NCBI RefSeq assembly: GCF_024223415.1
Contig: NZ_CP100500.1
Source: Escherichia coli
GTDB lineage: Bacteria; Pseudomonadota; Gammaproteobacteria; Enterobacterales; Enterobacteriaceae
Length of the DNA: 64,000 nucleotides
Reading direction: 5' to 3' (one strand)
Position numbers and translations under genes: made by a program. The notes beneath the pieces were generated by a model, which was given only the letters and a program-made list of their open reading frames with translations, searched no databases and had not been told where the DNA came from. Of this stretch, positions 2,149 through 39,134 are shown one piece after another. Each line of letters begins with the position of its first letter. The stretch's first letter is position 1.

Positions 2149-3900
<1,752 letters not shown>

Positions 3901-33167: not shown

Positions 33168-34136
33168 TTGTTAAATTCATTTAAACTTTCGCTACAGTAC
33201 ATTCTGCCGAAACTATGGCTTACTCGCCTGGCGGGTTGGGGCGCAAGCAAGCGGGCAGGATGGCTGACAAAACTGGTTATCGATCTGTTCGTTAAATACT
33301 ACAAGGTCGACATGAAAGAGGCGCAAAAGCCGGACACCGCCAGCTACCGCACCTTTAACGAATTCTTTGTCCGTCCGCTGCGTGACGAAGTACGCCCAAT
33401 CGATACCGATCCGAATGTCCTGGTTATGCCTGCCGATGGCGTTATCAGCCAGTTGGGTAAAATCGAAGAAGATAAAATCCTGCAAGCCAAAGGCCACAAC
33501 TACAGCCTCGAAGCCCTGCTGGCAGGCAACTATCTGATGGCGGACCTGTTCCGCAACGGTACGTTTGTGACCACTTACCTCTCCCCGCGTGACTACCACC
33601 GCGTACACATGCCGTGCAACGGTATTCTGCGTGAGATGATCTACGTGCCGGGCGATCTCTTCTCCGTTAACCATCTCACGGCTCAGAACGTGCCGAATCT
33701 GTTTGCCCGTAACGAACGCGTGATCTGCCTGTTCGATACCGAATTTGGCCCAATGGCGCAGATTCTGGTCGGTGCGACGATTGTAGGCAGCATTGAGACT
33801 GTCTGGGCGGGCACCATTACGCCGCCGCGCGAAGGCATCATCAAGCGCTGGACCTGGCCTGCCGGGGAAAACGACGGTTCTGTGGCACTGCTGAAAGGCC
33901 AGGAAATGGGTCGTTTTAAACTCGGTTCCACCGTTATCAACCTGTTTGCACCGGGTAAAGTGAATCTGGTTGAGCAACTGGAAAGCCTGTCTGTCACGAA
34001 AATTGGCCAGCCGCTGGCAGTATCTACCGAAACCTTTGTTACGCCAGACGCTGAACCAGCTCCACTTCCTGCTGAAGAGATCGAAGCAGAACACGACGCC
34101 AGCCCATTGGTTGACGATAAAAAAGACCAGGTCTAA
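33168..34136 (+). CDS. psd: phosphatidylserine decarboxylase proenzyme Psd
   Basis: ORF 322 aa, TTG start, [27 protein letters not shown]...; LGST self-cleavage motif (KLGSTV) present. Confidence 0.93.
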
Positions 34137-34157: not shown

Positions 34158-37100
34158 GTGCGCCTGATTATCACTTTTCTGATGGCCTGGTGCCTCAGTT
34201 GGGGGGCGTACGCCGCGACGGCCCCCGATAGCAAACAAATCTCACAAGAACTGGAGCAGGCAAAAGCGGCGAAACCCGCACAGCCGGAAGTCGTAGAGGC
34301 GCTCCAGTCTGCCTTAAATGCGCTTGAGGAACGAAAAGGTTCCCTTGAGCGCATCAAGCAATATCAAGAAGTCATTGATAATTATCCGAAACTCTCCGCT
34401 ACTCTGCGCGCACAATTAAACAACATGCGTGACGAGCCGCGCAGCGTGTCGCCGGGGATGTCTACCGACGCGCTGAATCAGGAAATTCTCCAGGTCAGCA
34501 GTCAGTTGCTGGATAAAAGCCGTCAGGCCCAGCAAGAGCAGGAGCGCGCCCGCGAGATTGCCGATTCGCTGAATCAACTGCCGCAACAGCAAACCGACGC
34601 CCGCCGTCAGTTAAACGAGATCGAGCGCCGCCTGGGAACGCTTACCGGCAATACTCCGCTCAATCAGGCACAAAATTTCGCGTTGCAGTCTGACTCCGCA
34701 CGTCTTAAGGCGCTCGTTGATGAACTGGAGCTGGCGCAGCTGTCTGCCAATAACCGCCAGGAATTAGCGCGCTTGCGCTCAGAGCTGGCGGAAAAAGAGA
34801 GCCAGCAACTGGATGCGTATTTGCAGGCCTTGCGTAATCAATTGAACAGCCAACGCCAGCTTGAGGCAGAGCGGGCGCTGGAAAGTACCGAATTACTAGC
34901 AGAAAACAGTGCCGATTTGCCGAAAGATATCGTCGCGCAATTCAAAATTAACCGCGAACTATCGGCGGCTTTGAATCAACAGGCGCAGCGGATGGATCTC
35001 GTTGCCTCGCAACAGCGTCAGGCTGCCAGCCAGACGTTACAGGTCCGGCAGGCGTTGAATACGCTGCGTGAACAGTCGCAATGGCTGGGATCGTCCAATC
35101 TGCTCGGCGAAGCGTTGCGGGCGCAGGTGGCACGGCTGCCGGAAATGCCGAAACCACAACAGCTTGATACCGAAATGGCGCAGTTGCGTGTGCAACGGTT
35201 ACGTTATGAGGATCTGCTTAATAAACAGCCGCTGCTACGGCAAATTCATCAGGCCGACGGTCAGCCGCTGACTGCCGAGCAAAACCGTATTCTGGAAGCA
35301 CAGCTACGCACTCAGCGTGAGTTGCTGAACTCATTGTTGCAGGGTGGCGACACGCTACTGCTGGAACTGACCAAGCTGAAAGTCTCCAACGGGCAACTGG
35401 AAGATGCGCTGAAAGAAGTGAACGAAGCGACGCACCGCTATCTGTTCTGGACCTCTGACGTGCGCCCGATGACCATCGCCTGGCCGCTGGAAATCGCCCA
35501 GGATCTGCGTCGTCTCATTTCGCTGGACACCTTCAGTCAGTTGGGCAAAGCCAGTGTGATGATGCTGACCAGCAAAGAGACGATTTTGCCGCTGTTTGGC
35601 GCGTTGATTCTGGTCGGTTGCAGTATTTACTCGCGCCGCTATTTTACCCGTTTTCTTGAACGTTCGGCGGCGAAAGTCGGTAAAGTGACTCAGGATCACT
35701 TCTGGCTGACGTTACGCACTCTTTTCTGGTCGATTCTCGTCGCGTCACCGCTGCCGGTGCTGTGGATGACGCTGGGTTACGGCTTGCGCGAGGCGTGGCC
35801 TTATCCGCTGGCGGTCGCGATTGGCGATGGTGTAACGGCCACCGTGCCGCTGCTGTGGGTAGTGATGATTTGCGCCACCTTTGCCCGCCCGAACGGCTTG
35901 TTTATCGCTCATTTTGGCTGGCCGCGCGAACGTGTTTCTCGTGGGATGCGCTACTACCTGATGAGCATCGGGCTTATTGTGCCACTGATTATGGCGCTGA
36001 TGATGTTCGATAACCTCGACGACCGCGAATTTTCCGGTTCGCTGGGACGGCTTTGCTTTATCCTCATTTGCGGTGCGCTGGCGGTGGTCACCCTCAGCCT
36101 GAAAAAGGCCGGGATCCCGCTGTATCTCAACAAAGAGGGCAGCGGCGACAACATTACCAACCATATGCTGTGGAACATGATGATTGGCGCGCCACTGGTT
36201 GCCATTCTGGCGTCGGCGGTGGGTTATCTGGCAACGGCGCAGGCACTGTTAGCGAGGCTTGAAACCTCGGTTGCCATCTGGTTCCTGCTACTGGTGGTTT
36301 ATCACGTTATCCGCCGCTGGATGCTGATCCAACGACGCAGGCTGGCGTTTGACCGGGCGAAGCATCGCCGGGCAGAGATGTTAGCGCAACGTGCGCGTGG
36401 CGAAGAGGAAGCACATCATCACAGTAGCCCGGAAGGGGCAATTGAAGTCGATGAAAGCGAAGTCGATCTCGATGCCATCAGTGCGCAGTCCTTGCGGCTG
36501 GTGCGCTCAATTTTGATGTTGATCGCCCTGCTTTCGGTCATTGTGCTGTGGTCAGAAATCCATTCCGCTTTCGGCTTCCTCGAAAATATTTCGCTGTGGG
36601 ATGTCACCTCCACGGTACAGGGCGTAGAAAGTCTGGAGCCGATTACCCTCGGTGCGGTGCTGATTGCCATTCTGGTGTTTATCATCACCACGCAGCTGGT
36701 GCGCAATCTGCCCGCGCTGCTGGAACTGGCGATTTTGCAGCACCTGGATTTAACGCCGGGTACCGGCTACGCCATCACCACCATCACCAAATATCTGCTG
36801 ATGCTGATTGGCGGGCTGGTCGGCTTCTCGATGATTGGTATTGAGTGGTCGAAATTGCAGTGGCTGGTCGCCGCGCTCGGTGTTGGTCTCGGTTTTGGTT
36901 TGCAGGAAATTTTCGCCAACTTTATCTCTGGCCTGATCATCCTGTTCGAAAAACCGATTCGCATTGGCGATACGGTAACGATCCGCGATCTTACTGGTAG
37001 CGTGACAAAAATTAACACCCGCGCCACCACCATCAGCGACTGGGACCGTAAAGAGATAATCGTGCCGAACAAGGCGTTTATTACCGAGCAGTTTATCAAC

Positions 37101-37481
37101 TGGTCGCTCTCTGACTCGGTCACGCGCGTGGTGTTGACGATTCCGGCCCCTGCCGATGCCAACAGTGAAGAAGTGACGGAAATCCTGCTCACCGCAGCGC
37201 GTCGCTGCTCGCTGGTGATCGACAACCCGGCACCGGAAGTCTTCCTGGTGGATCTGCAACAGGGGATTCAGATTTTCGAGCTGCGTATTTACGCCGCTGA
37301 GATGGGTCACCGTATGCCGCTACGCCATGAGATCCACCAGCTGATTCTGGCTGGCTTCCATGCCCACGGTATCGATATGCCATTCCCGCCCTTCCAGATG
37401 CGTCTGGAAAGCCTCAACGGTAAACAAACGGGGAGAACGCTGACGTCTGCGGGCAAAGGTCGTCAGGCGGGAAGTTTGTAA
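34158..37481 (+). CDS. mscM: miniconductance mechanosensitive channel MscM (MscS family)
   Basis: ORF 1107 aa, GTG start, signal peptide plus long coiled-coil periplasmic domain, multi-TM region and MscS core. Confidence 0.92.
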   Translation: MRLIITFLMAWCLSWGAYAATAPDSKQISQELEQAKAAKPAQPEVVEALQSALNALEERKGSLERIKQYQEVIDNYPKLSATLRAQLNNMRDEPRSVSPGMSTDALNQEILQVSSQLLDKSRQAQQEQERAREIADSLNQLPQQQTDARRQLNEIERRLGTLTGNTPLNQAQNFALQSDSARLKALVDELELAQLSANNRQELARLRSELAEKESQQLDAYLQALRNQLNSQRQLEAERALESTELLAENSADLPKDIVAQFKINRELSAALNQQAQRMDLVASQQRQAASQTLQVRQALNTLREQSQWLGSSNLLGEALRAQVARLPEMPKPQQLDTEMAQLRVQRLRYEDLLNKQPLLRQIHQADGQPLTAEQNRILEAQLRTQRELLNSLLQGGDTLLLELTKLKVSNGQLEDALKEVNEATHRYLFWTSDVRPMTIAWPLEIAQDLRRLISLDTFSQLGKASVMMLTSKETILPLFGALILVGCSIYSRRYFTRFLERSAAKVGKVTQDHFWLTLRTLFWSILVASPLPVLWMTLGYGLREAWPYPLAVAIGDGVTATVPLLWVVMICATFARPNGLFIAHFGWPRERVSRGMRYYLMSIGLIVPLIMALMMFDNLDDREFSGSLGRLCFILICGALAVVTLSLKKAGIPLYLNKEGSGDNITNHMLWNMMIGAPLVAILASAVGYLATAQALLARLETSVAIWFLLLVVYHVIRRWMLIQRRRLAFDRAKHRRAEMLAQRARGEEEAHHHSSPEGAIEVDESEVDLDAISAQSLRLVRSILMLIALLSVIVLWSEIHSAFGFLENISLWDVTSTVQGVESLEPITLGAVLIAILVFIITTQLVRNLPALLELAILQHLDLTPGTGYAITTITKYLLMLIGGLVGFSMIGIEWSKLQWLVAALGVGLGFGLQEIFANFISGLIILFEKPIRIGDTVTIRDLTGSVTKINTRATTISDWDRKEIIVPNKAFITEQFINWSLSDSVTRVVLTIPAPADANSEEVTEILLTAARRCSLVIDNPAPEVFLVDLQQGIQIFELRIYAAEMGHRMPLRHEIHQLILAGFHAHGIDMPFPPFQMRLESLNGKQTGRTLTSAGKGRQAGSL

Positions 37482-37631
37482 TGCATGAAGCTGCCAAATG
37501 ATGTCAACGTGGCTCATTTAGCAGCTTAACATCATCTTCAGTTATCACCGGCCCTGGAGAGTATCATCCATACGCATTACTTCCTGACAACTCATCGCCG
37601 GAGAGACGATGAGTTGCAGGATTTCATATGA

Positions 37632-39134
37632 TCAGTCGAGAGCTAACTCAGGTTTATTCGCCATGCGACTGCAATAGTTCTGGTAAATCGCCATCGCTAA
37701 CAGCGAGAAGAAGACAGGGCCGCCAATCATCCACAATGTGCTGTCCCAGTCTCCGGCTTCAACCACAGGCTGAATGATGGTGAAGACGTTCGCAAATGTC
37801 ACCACCAGTACGACAACCACTGTCGCAATCATTGCCGACAAATGCGTTTTGAAAATCACAAATGGTCTGTCGAGATCCTGACGTGCTTTAAAGAATGGGA
37901 AAGCCAGCGCGAGGAACAGGTAAGGAAGCGTCATAGACACGTTCGCCATCAGCGTCAGCTTGTTAAAGAACGCCGATGCGGTACCGCCACCAAACGAAAC
38001 CAGCAGGATGAAGACAGTAACCAACCCGCACTGCATCCACATGGCGATAGACGGCATCCCCATCGCATTCAGGCGCGTCATCGGTTCCGGCCACAACGCT
38101 TTCGGCGTCCCCTGGATGATGGCTTTCAGCGGTGAATAGCAAAGCGTAAAGAACGCACCGGTATAAGCGAGGAACATCGAAAGTCCGGTAATACGCGCAA
38201 ACCATACGCCCAGCGACAATGACGCTTCAGGTGACAAATGCAGTGCGTTACCCAGCGTCACCCCGAGGCTCTTCATCAGCACATAGGTAATATTGCCAAG
38301 GTTAACGGAACCATTACTTAATACCTGCTGCCAGTTTGTGCTGACGCCCCATAAAAATATTGCCAGCGAATAACCGATTGAAATAACAATAGCGGCAAAA
38401 ACAATACCTTTGGCAAAGTTCTTTTCTGGATTTTCCGTTTTATCGACCAGACCACCAACCGCTTCAATTCCGCCATAGGCAAAAATAGCAAATACCACAA
38501 ACGATAGCATTGCCAGACCGGACTGATAACCCGGGTTCGGCGATGCAAGGAAATTAATATCCTGCGCGAAATGCCCACCATTTAATAACAAAATAGTAAT
38601 GCTTACTAACAGCAATACTAAATTCAGACACATTACTGCAATACCGCCCACCGCAGTAATGCGGGCAATTTTATTAATCCCCTTAGAAGCAACGACGGTG
38701 ACCAGAATCATCCATGCCACTGCCAGCAGACCAACCACCTGCGTAGGCTCCAGTCCGGCAATACGCCAGTGCTGGGTCATGTCGCTACCATAGAGGAATG
38801 TTGAGAACGGTACCCAAACTTTCGCGGAGGTACTCACCATCCAGATGATATAAGAGGAAAACCACATAAACGTACCAATGAAGGCAAAACGTGGTCCGAC
38901 ACTATTATTCATCCAGGAATAGATACCACCTTCTTCTTTGCGATAAGCAGCTCCCATTTCAGCCATCATTAAGGCGAATGGAATAAAGAATAACAATGCA
39001 GAAAATATATAAAAGGGAATCGCACTATAACCCATTAAGTAATAAGCCGATGGGCTATTGGCAAATCCAAATACGGAAGTAAAGATCATCAATATGAGTC
39101 CTATCAGACTCATCTTTTTTATCGTGTGAGGCAT
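37632..39134 (-). CDS. yjeM: APC-superfamily amino-acid/polyamine transporter YjeM
   Basis: ORF 37632..39176(-) trimmed to MPHTIKKMSLIGLILMIFTSVFG, 500 aa, polytopic. Confidence 0.88.
   Translation of the reverse strand: MPHTIKKMSLIGLILMIFTSVFGFANSPSAYYLMGYSAIPFYIFSALLFFIPFALMMAEMGAAYRKEEGGIYSWMNNSVGPRFAFIGTFMWFSSYIIWMVSTSAKVWVPFSTFLYGSDMTQHWRIAGLEPTQVVGLLAVAWMILVTVVASKGINKIARITAVGGIAVMCLNLVLLLVSITILLLNGGHFAQDINFLASPNPGYQSGLAMLSFVVFAIFAYGGIEAVGGLVDKTENPEKNFAKGIVFAAIVISIGYSLAIFLWGVSTNWQQVLSNGSVNLGNITYVLMKSLGVTLGNALHLSPEASLSLGVWFARITGLSMFLAYTGAFFTLCYSPLKAIIQGTPKALWPEPMTRLNAMGMPSIAMWMQCGLVTVFILLVSFGGGTASAFFNKLTLMANVSMTLPYLFLALAFPFFKARQDLDRPFVIFKTHLSAMIATVVVVLVVTFANVFTIIQPVVEAGDWDSTLWMIGGPVFFSLLAMAIYQNYCSRMANKPELALD

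Follow-up and report, generated by a model that had tools for sequence, protein, structure and literature searches.

The 64,000-nucleotide stretch of Escherichia coli DNA analyzed here (hereafter the window) brings the convergent genes mscM and yjeM to within 150 bp of each other, raising the question of whether this gap has always been short or has lost genes that other strains still carry, and of what its remaining nucleotides preserve. The initial annotation had placed two small genes at this position in K-12, and it was correct: MG1655 has yjeN (b4157) and yjeO (b4158) between yjeM and mscM, and its stop-to-stop spacing is 705 bp, not the 150 bp that would have contradicted this gene order. 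In the window the open reading frame ends at 37481 and 37632 leave a gap of exactly 150 bp, in which the RefSeq annotation of strain S51 (100% identical over window positions 37000–38200) places no feature between mscM and yjeM. The gap and its borders are:

34158–37481, plus strand: mscM coding sequence, stop TAA at 37479–37481, the left border of the slot (open reading frame list and S51 RefSeq annotation).
37482–37631, no strand: the 150-bp spacer, read below as the yjeN–yjeO deletion-scar allele (genome counts).
37632–39134, minus strand: yjeM coding sequence, stop TGA at 37634–37632, the right border of the slot (open reading frame list, annotation and alignments).

Alignment against K-12 and other strains bears out the loss of accessory genes at this slot, and the genome counts and locus comparisons given below uphold the proposal of a strain-level presence/absence polymorphism within a collinear epmA–yjeM–slot–mscM–psd backbone. 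The scar lies at the slot homologous to that of the intact genes, collinear with K-12 and with ~50 Enterobacteriaceae loci, and the MscM encoded in the window is 99% identical to that of K-12. The neighboring psd (window 33168–34136) is named “asd, archaetidylserine decarboxylase” in the S51 RefSeq annotation, a naming quirk for phosphatidylserine decarboxylase.

The gap had been described as holding a perfect 10-bp hairpin and nothing else. The hairpin is located as stated (arms CAACTCATCG at 37588–37597 and CGATGAGTTG at 37607–37616), but a second stem-loop and a relic of yjeN accompany it. The elements of the spacer are as follows:

37488–37527, no strand: mscM-proximal imperfect stem-loop with 14-nt arms, 13/14 complementary (inverted-repeat search and fold).
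37528–37536, no strand: probable deletion junction, at which yjeN codons 13–14 (GAAGATGA) would be joined to the end of yjeO.
37532–37571, minus strand: yjeN 5′-end relic of 40 nt, with ATG at 37571–37569 and ~13 codons (translation and alignments).
37580–37585, minus strand: yjeN Shine-Dalgarno relic AGGAAG, 8 nt before the ATG (read from the sequence).
37583–37620, minus strand: yjeM-proximal stem-loop, with a 10-bp perfect core at 37588–37616, single-copy per genome.

The window was compared by alignment with K-12, SF-088, E. albertii and E. whittamii, as well as with three further Escherichia lineages. Read along the minus strand, the yjeM stop is followed by 12 nt, the stem-loop, the Shine-Dalgarno sequence, the ATG and ~13 codons that match yjeN; the Shine-Dalgarno relic is the positional homologue of the AAGGAAG or CAGGAAA found upstream of intact yjeN. 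At 40 nt the relic is short, and its identity to intact yjeN is only ~75%: 29–31 of 41 positions agree with the yjeN of K-12, SF-088, E. albertii, E1V33 and Salmonella arizonae, a level that none of 2,000 shuffles reached. Its reading frame has been destroyed by a 1-bp deletion after codon 7, giving MDDTLQGR followed by a stop (window peptide MDDTLQG[frameshift]PVITEDD, against MDDxSRDPxITEDE in intact YjeN), and the remainder of yjeN is missing. At the opposite end of the spacer, the last ~50 nt before the mscM stop match the yjeO–mscM spacer of E. albertii and E. whittamii (the alignment beat 2,000 of 2,000 shuffles), inclusive of an exact 14-mer, GGCAGCTTCATGCA, that adjoins the mscM stop; against the K-12 or SF-088 type, the same segment aligns at the chance level of the shuffle test. 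The two halves would meet where the end of E. albertii yjeO reads TGGTGA followed by TTGAAGCTGC. This junction carries an imperfect GATGA/GGTGA microhomology, and alignment would place the exact breakpoint within a few bases; relative to intact yjeN–yjeO, ~0.59 kb of coding sequence has been lost.

K-12 and the window belong to distinct haplotypes over the whole interval from the final 12 yjeM codons to the stop of mscM. Since the flanking haplotypes differ and the spacer retains a piece of yjeN, the difference between the two is not a clean indel in identical flanks. The yjeM tail (37635–37670, minus strand) ends in SRMANKPELALD before the stop in the window, SF-088 and E. albertii, and in SRVAKNPQWAVE in K-12, the yjeO-only strains and E. 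whittamii, which sets the haplotype boundary of the slot inside the yjeM coding sequence. The K-12 locus occupies the same slot between the same flanks (epmA–yjeM and mscM–psd–rsgA), and the window retains the first 40 nt of yjeN along with its ribosome-binding site, whereas ~0.59 kb of the K-12 arrangement is absent and both flanking stem-loops and the last 12 yjeM codons are of another type. The allele of E. albertii (L007) resembles the window more fully: its yjeM is followed by the CAACTCATCG...CGATGAGTTG stem-loop and its mscM adjoined by the AAGCTGC...GGCAGCTTCAYGCA stem-loop. It is unlike the window in that yjeN and yjeO are intact and the mscM-proximal hairpin has a loop shorter by 12 nt. 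Judged by alignment, the E. albertii allele is the best available model of the parental allele. Among the E. coli genomes of our collection, none carries intact yjeN–yjeO beside a window-type mscM-proximal stem-loop, this parental architecture being seen only in E. albertii. The extra 12 nt in the mscM-proximal loop have no clear counterpart in any intact allele, so that a second event (insertion or rearrangement) must be assumed for them.

We conclude that the spacer is very probably the remnant of one old deletion of ~0.59 kb that removed yjeN–yjeO from an E. albertii-like allele and that was later spread by recombination. The cassette would first have been gained in a slot that, across the family as a whole, began short and empty; a deletion spanning approximately yjeN codon 14 to the yjeO stop, in an allele of E. 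albertii architecture, would then have left two gene-proximal stem-loops and a dead, frameshifted yjeN start (ribosome-binding site, ATG and 13 codons). The resulting null allele would have persisted and, by homologous recombination in the conserved genes on either side, passed from lineage to lineage, to coexist in present-day E. coli with intact yjeN–yjeO and with a separately deleted, yjeO-only allele.

The reverse polarity, with the 150-bp spacer as the original empty site into which yjeN–yjeO inserted in K-12 and its relatives, draws on the distribution of the cassette across the family. When one genome per species was scanned, the epmA–yjeM–slot–mscM order was recovered in ~50 Enterobacteriaceae; most genera have a short, empty yjeM–mscM slot, which means that the cassette was gained at some point, and YjeN is confined to Escherichia and Salmonella. 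What the spacer contains makes an original empty state very improbable, however. An empty target site is not expected to hold, at the corresponding position, the ribosome-binding site, start codon and 13 codons of yjeN, and the empty slots elsewhere are 35–95 bp long, with one GC-rich hairpin and a sequence unrelated to the spacer. Direct repeats are absent within 37400–37720, nor were an integrase or att-like sites found. The short slot in most genera thus points to an earlier gain of the cassette, and the window to a later loss. A mobile element or integrative cassette was likewise rejected as an identity for the locus: flanking direct repeats are lacking, and the annotated slots of the window, K-12 and SF-088 hold neither a recombinase nor a transposase gene (an IS630 pseudogene occurs only in an allele of 45 genomes, described below).

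Beyond Escherichia and Salmonella the slot mostly spans 35–95 bp around a single strong hairpin; among these hairpins are some with the A-runs and T-runs known from classical bidirectional terminators and others of REP-like character (in some Citrobacter). yjeN–yjeO is present in E. albertii and other Escherichia, and the Salmonella slot is polymorphic, with yjeN alone in many genomes and a DUF2645 gene (the family of YjeO) alone in some (L099–L101, L102, L018, L037). The S. arizonae slot contains a yjeN-like sequence that appears frameshifted; that of S. diarizonae is 61 bp long and empty. A different occupant, a gene for a 237-aa protein together with a DUF2645 gene, fills the slot of Citrobacter werkmanii, C. 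youngae, Enterobacter sp. ENT03, Pseudocitrobacter faecalis and Enterobacteriaceae bacterium 89, and degraded remnants of this pair are found in Leclercia. epmA occurs a second time in Enterobacter sp. ENT03: a partial copy (residues 198–326; L033, 6025–6411) lies just downstream of yjeM, beside the 237-aa/DUF2645 module, and in Cronobacter, where yjeM is absent from this position, the module directly follows epmA. Taken together, the partial epmA copy and the Cronobacter layout make the Enterobacter cassette look as though it was imported with a piece of the epmA flank of its donor. The slot of Superficieibacter electus (L035, 5985–6236) is 250 bp long and comprises approximately three tandem copies of a GC-rich palindromic unit of ~65 nt, a further route by which this slot has grown.

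How common the scar is within the species was assessed in 5,426 complete E. coli genomes, with the spacer scored as present at a coverage of at least 80%. By this measure 2,394 genomes (44%) carry the scar, among them O157:H7, O55:H7, BL21 and LF82. Full-length yjeN occurs in 2,153 of the 5,426 and yjeO in 3,021–3,025, which leaves three principal alleles: the scar, yjeN with yjeO (~2,153 genomes, 40%; K-12, W/KO11FL and an O103 isolate), and yjeO without full yjeN (~870 genomes, ~16% by subtraction; an O25:H4 isolate, A1_136 and M1/5, for example), in which a separate deletion of ~0.27 kb took the yjeN start and most of yjeN. Because the spacer and yjeO counts sum to 5,419 of the 5,426 genomes, the two must almost never co-occur. 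A rare, larger cassette, with the 237-aa gene, a second DUF2645 gene and an IS630 pseudogene, is found in 45 of the 5,426. Its representative in E. coli CRECJHTL34 (L005, 1355–3776) holds two DUF2645 genes in one slot and reads, from yjeM, as a yjeO-like gene (annotated only from an internal Met), the IS630 pseudogene, the 237-aa hypothetical gene, a DUF2645 gene of low GC content (34%) and mscM. Three partial matches (H76, H80 and H180), considered as possible new structures, are point variants or the SF-088-type allele. The scar is an old and very common polymorphism of an ordinary kind, the deletion of two small accessory genes.

The age of the deletion is indicated by its presence outside the lineage of the window. 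The same junction with the same 1-bp deletion occurs in a genome labeled E. coli E69 (L006; yjeM dS of 0.40 from the window, scar 84% identical) and in Escherichia sp. MOD1-EC7003 (L011; yjeM dS 0.10, scar 89% identical), and a junction common to two further Escherichia lineages implies that the deletion is old. That the junction is identical, rather than any phylogeny, suggests a single origin. The deep Escherichia lineages that share the scar also contain intact alleles. Within E. coli, yjeN haplotypes differ by a dS of ~0.3 against 0.04–0.09 for the flanking genes, from which it follows that the allelic lineages of the slot are older than the core genome around them. Movement of the scar between these backgrounds was presumably by recombination: LF82 (phylogroup B2, with a B2-type MscM) has 12 differences from the window in the last 200 nt of mscM and two in the 150-bp spacer, a contrast which suggests that recombination had its breakpoint at the mscM stop. 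Of the 2,394 scar genomes, to which the leftmost 64 nt of the spacer are confined, 2,384 have this segment in identical form. This uniformity fits a transfer of the scar between backgrounds by homologous recombination; it could also reflect constraint on the stem-loop, instead of recent spread.

We turn to the two stem-loops, the structural features that remain in the gap. In the RNA of yjeM sense, the yjeM-proximal stem is extended by CCUG/CAGG to 12 bp and starts 12 nt past the yjeM stop (15 nt for the core). Its energy is −23.6 kcal/mol on the plus strand and −27.2 kcal/mol on the minus strand, with fold z-scores against shuffles of −5.5 and −6.7, respectively. It is the sole perfect inverted repeat of at least 10 nt, with arms at most 20 nt apart, in 15 kb, and none comparable arose in 100 shuffles. 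All 12 pairs are kept in all nine distinct sequences, which represent the two haplotype classes, and at five of the pairs both partners differ from one haplotype to the other. None of the shuffles attained this degree of pairing, and shifted registers all collapse. The compensatory changes mostly represent one split between two haplotypes and hence do not amount to many independent events. Among window-type alleles the hairpin is near-invariant, beside a yjeN relic that has diverged by ~25%. These sequence comparisons show the yjeM-proximal stem to be clearly maintained. It was considered and rejected as a REP/BIME repeat, the spacer occurring at a median of one place per genome and the hairpin being unique in the 64-kb window. 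The mscM-proximal stem-loop begins 6 nt past the mscM stop and has a loop of 12 nt between its 14-nt arms (25 nt in the comparison with intact alleles); it is homologous, with an enlarged loop, to the one that separates the stops of yjeO and mscM in E. albertii and E. whittamii, and some stem-loop stands just past the mscM stop in every allele compared.

The suggestion that the perfect hairpin acts as a bidirectional intrinsic (Rho-independent) terminator for mscM and yjeM, for which the spacer would have been kept, gains from the great stability of the stem, from pairing preserved through five double changes between haplotypes, from the near-constancy of the hairpin while the adjacent relic diverged, and from the single slot hairpins of other genera, some with the A-runs and T-runs typical of such elements. 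Known bidirectional intrinsic terminators likewise consist of a stable stem-loop in a short gap between convergent genes, yet they are unlike the window in two respects: here neither stem-loop has a flanking U- or A-tract, and each of the two genes has a stem-loop of its own. The suggestion does not hold in the canonical sense. No U-tract follows either stem on either strand (the hairpin is followed by CAGGAUUUCAUAUG on the plus and by UCAGGAAGUAAUGCG on the minus strand), and a consensus scan of 37300–37800 returned no terminator-like site on either strand. The stem is perfect over 10–12 bp and stable, with a loop of 5–9 nt, but only five of the 10 core pairs are G-C. In intact alleles the same hairpin separates yjeM from yjeN, genes of the same strand ~50 nt apart, where a strong terminator would cut yjeN off from its only obvious upstream transcription, and mscM has its own, separate stem-loop 6 nt past its stop. 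We therefore regard an intrinsic bidirectional terminator as improbable. Each stem-loop may instead shape or protect the 3′ end of the transcript of its adjacent gene, probably in combination with Rho-dependent termination; such a role would also explain why both stem-loops survived the deletion.

A functional product of the spacer itself, either a new small RNA or a micro-protein (from the 8-codon yjeN-relic ORF with its intact ribosome-binding site, or from a 14-codon plus-strand ORF, MKLPNDVNVAHLAA), might be suspected from the 64-nt segment so uniform across phylogroups (2,384 of 2,394 scar genomes) and from a whole-spacer fold far better than that of shuffles (z approximately −5). The structure is fully accounted for by the two inherited stem-loops, however, and the relic ORF varies between scar lineages, as in that labeled E69. 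An Rfam search of 37200–37900 at a permissive threshold gave only chance-level matches of eukaryotic snoRNA type (best E 1.3), and the one promoter-like site found is within chance (0.3 expected). We give such a product hardly any credence.

The proteins missing from the window are the products of real genes. Where present, yjeN and yjeO evolve at a dN/dS of 0.02–0.3 (apart from a single outlying value of 0.62, obtained for yjeO when two close lineages were compared), and this purifying selection identifies them as genuine genes that were lost here. They overlap by 4 bp in K-12. YjeN matches nothing in Pfam, PADLOC or NCBIfam beyond a chance-level MerR hit (E 0.14), and its sequence matches in the PDB are at chance level only (E at least 0.7); the AlphaFold prediction for it is of modest quality (pLDDT 68), with no Foldseek match below E = 2.9. 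Nor is YjeN related to the 237-aa protein. YjeO is a membrane protein of the DUF2645 family, its sole Pfam match. A type II toxin–antitoxin pair was rejected, in that each gene occurs without the other (yjeO alone in ~16% of E. coli and in some Salmonella, yjeN alone in many Salmonella); the pair yielded neither a PADLOC match nor a Pfam match to a toxin–antitoxin family. Previous work reports induction of yjeO on sigma-E overexpression (PMC2731931) and, from a mastitis pan-genome study, an association of this gene with growth in milk (bioRxiv 10.1101/2023.07.26.549771), and yjeN is listed among poorly known accessory genes (PMC9976479). Within the literature searched, yjeN together with Escherichia received passing mentions only, and DUF2645 none.

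The gene order around DUF2645 in other bacteria may bear on what YjeO does. The 237-aa protein is widespread in Enterobacterales, and a DUF2645 gene lies directly 3′ of its gene in six of the six genera examined: Dickeya (L088/L089), Pectobacterium (L090/L091), Cronobacter (L092/L093), Advenella (L095), Paramixta (L096) and Xenorhabdus (L097). An orphan hcp (PF05638) adjoins the module in three of the six (Dickeya, Pectobacterium and Xenorhabdus) and is absent from the versions in the yjeM–mscM slot; in Paramixta the module is followed by a CdiI_2-type immunity gene. The 237-aa protein has no Pfam match. Its AlphaFold model (pLDDT 88) finds, as top PDB fold matches, nearly exclusively lytic transglycosylases (MltE), Tse3 and g-type lysozymes, all weakly (E 0.03–1, TM 0.4–0.5), and the family has an invariant Glu in an AxAEVGG motif. 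The predicted lysozyme-like fold, the DUF2645 gene in the immunity position and the frequent hcp neighbor are reminiscent of pairs of the Tse3–Tsi3 type from P. aeruginosa, although there is no sequence similarity to Tse3 or Tsi3 and the fold match is weak (E ~0.03, TM 0.4–0.5). DUF2645 is also unlike Tsi3 in being small, with hydrophobic segments that suggest approximately three membrane spans (predicted, as read from the sequence), and in K-12 the gene upstream of yjeO is yjeN, which is not related to the 237-aa protein. On its predicted fold and gene neighborhood, we consider the 237-aa/DUF2645 module a candidate for an undescribed T6SS effector–immunity family. It is more tentatively, and with somewhat less than an even chance of being right, that we extend this to the slot as a whole: it may be an old, trans-species polymorphic immunity locus, in which DUF2645/YjeO would serve as membrane immunity against an Hcp-linked, lysozyme-like 237-aa effector, the yjeO of K-12 would be an orphan, and the scar would be a null allele.

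The difference in gene content described here is common and harmless, and can already be seen in thousands of public annotations. The detail added (the yjeN relic, the E. albertii parental architecture, the scar shared across lineages and the conserved, non-canonical stem-loops) is tidy rather than surprising, and the scar by itself matters little. It does provide a clean example of how a datable deletion scar can lie behind an “empty” intergenic gap, and of how conserved stem-loops adjacent to stop codons survive a deletion. The absence of yjeO from BL21, O157:H7 and LF82, and its presence in K-12, bears on the phenotypes ascribed to this gene (sigma-E induction and growth in milk). Of wider interest is only the possible immunity role of DUF2645; should DUF2645 prove to be a T6SS immunity family, the strain difference in yjeO would matter in its own right. 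If the slot is indeed such an immunity locus, ~44% of E. coli, including O157:H7 and BL21, would be without that protection, and the intact, half-deleted and null alleles shared between lineages would reflect a trade-off of cost and benefit and not neutral decay.
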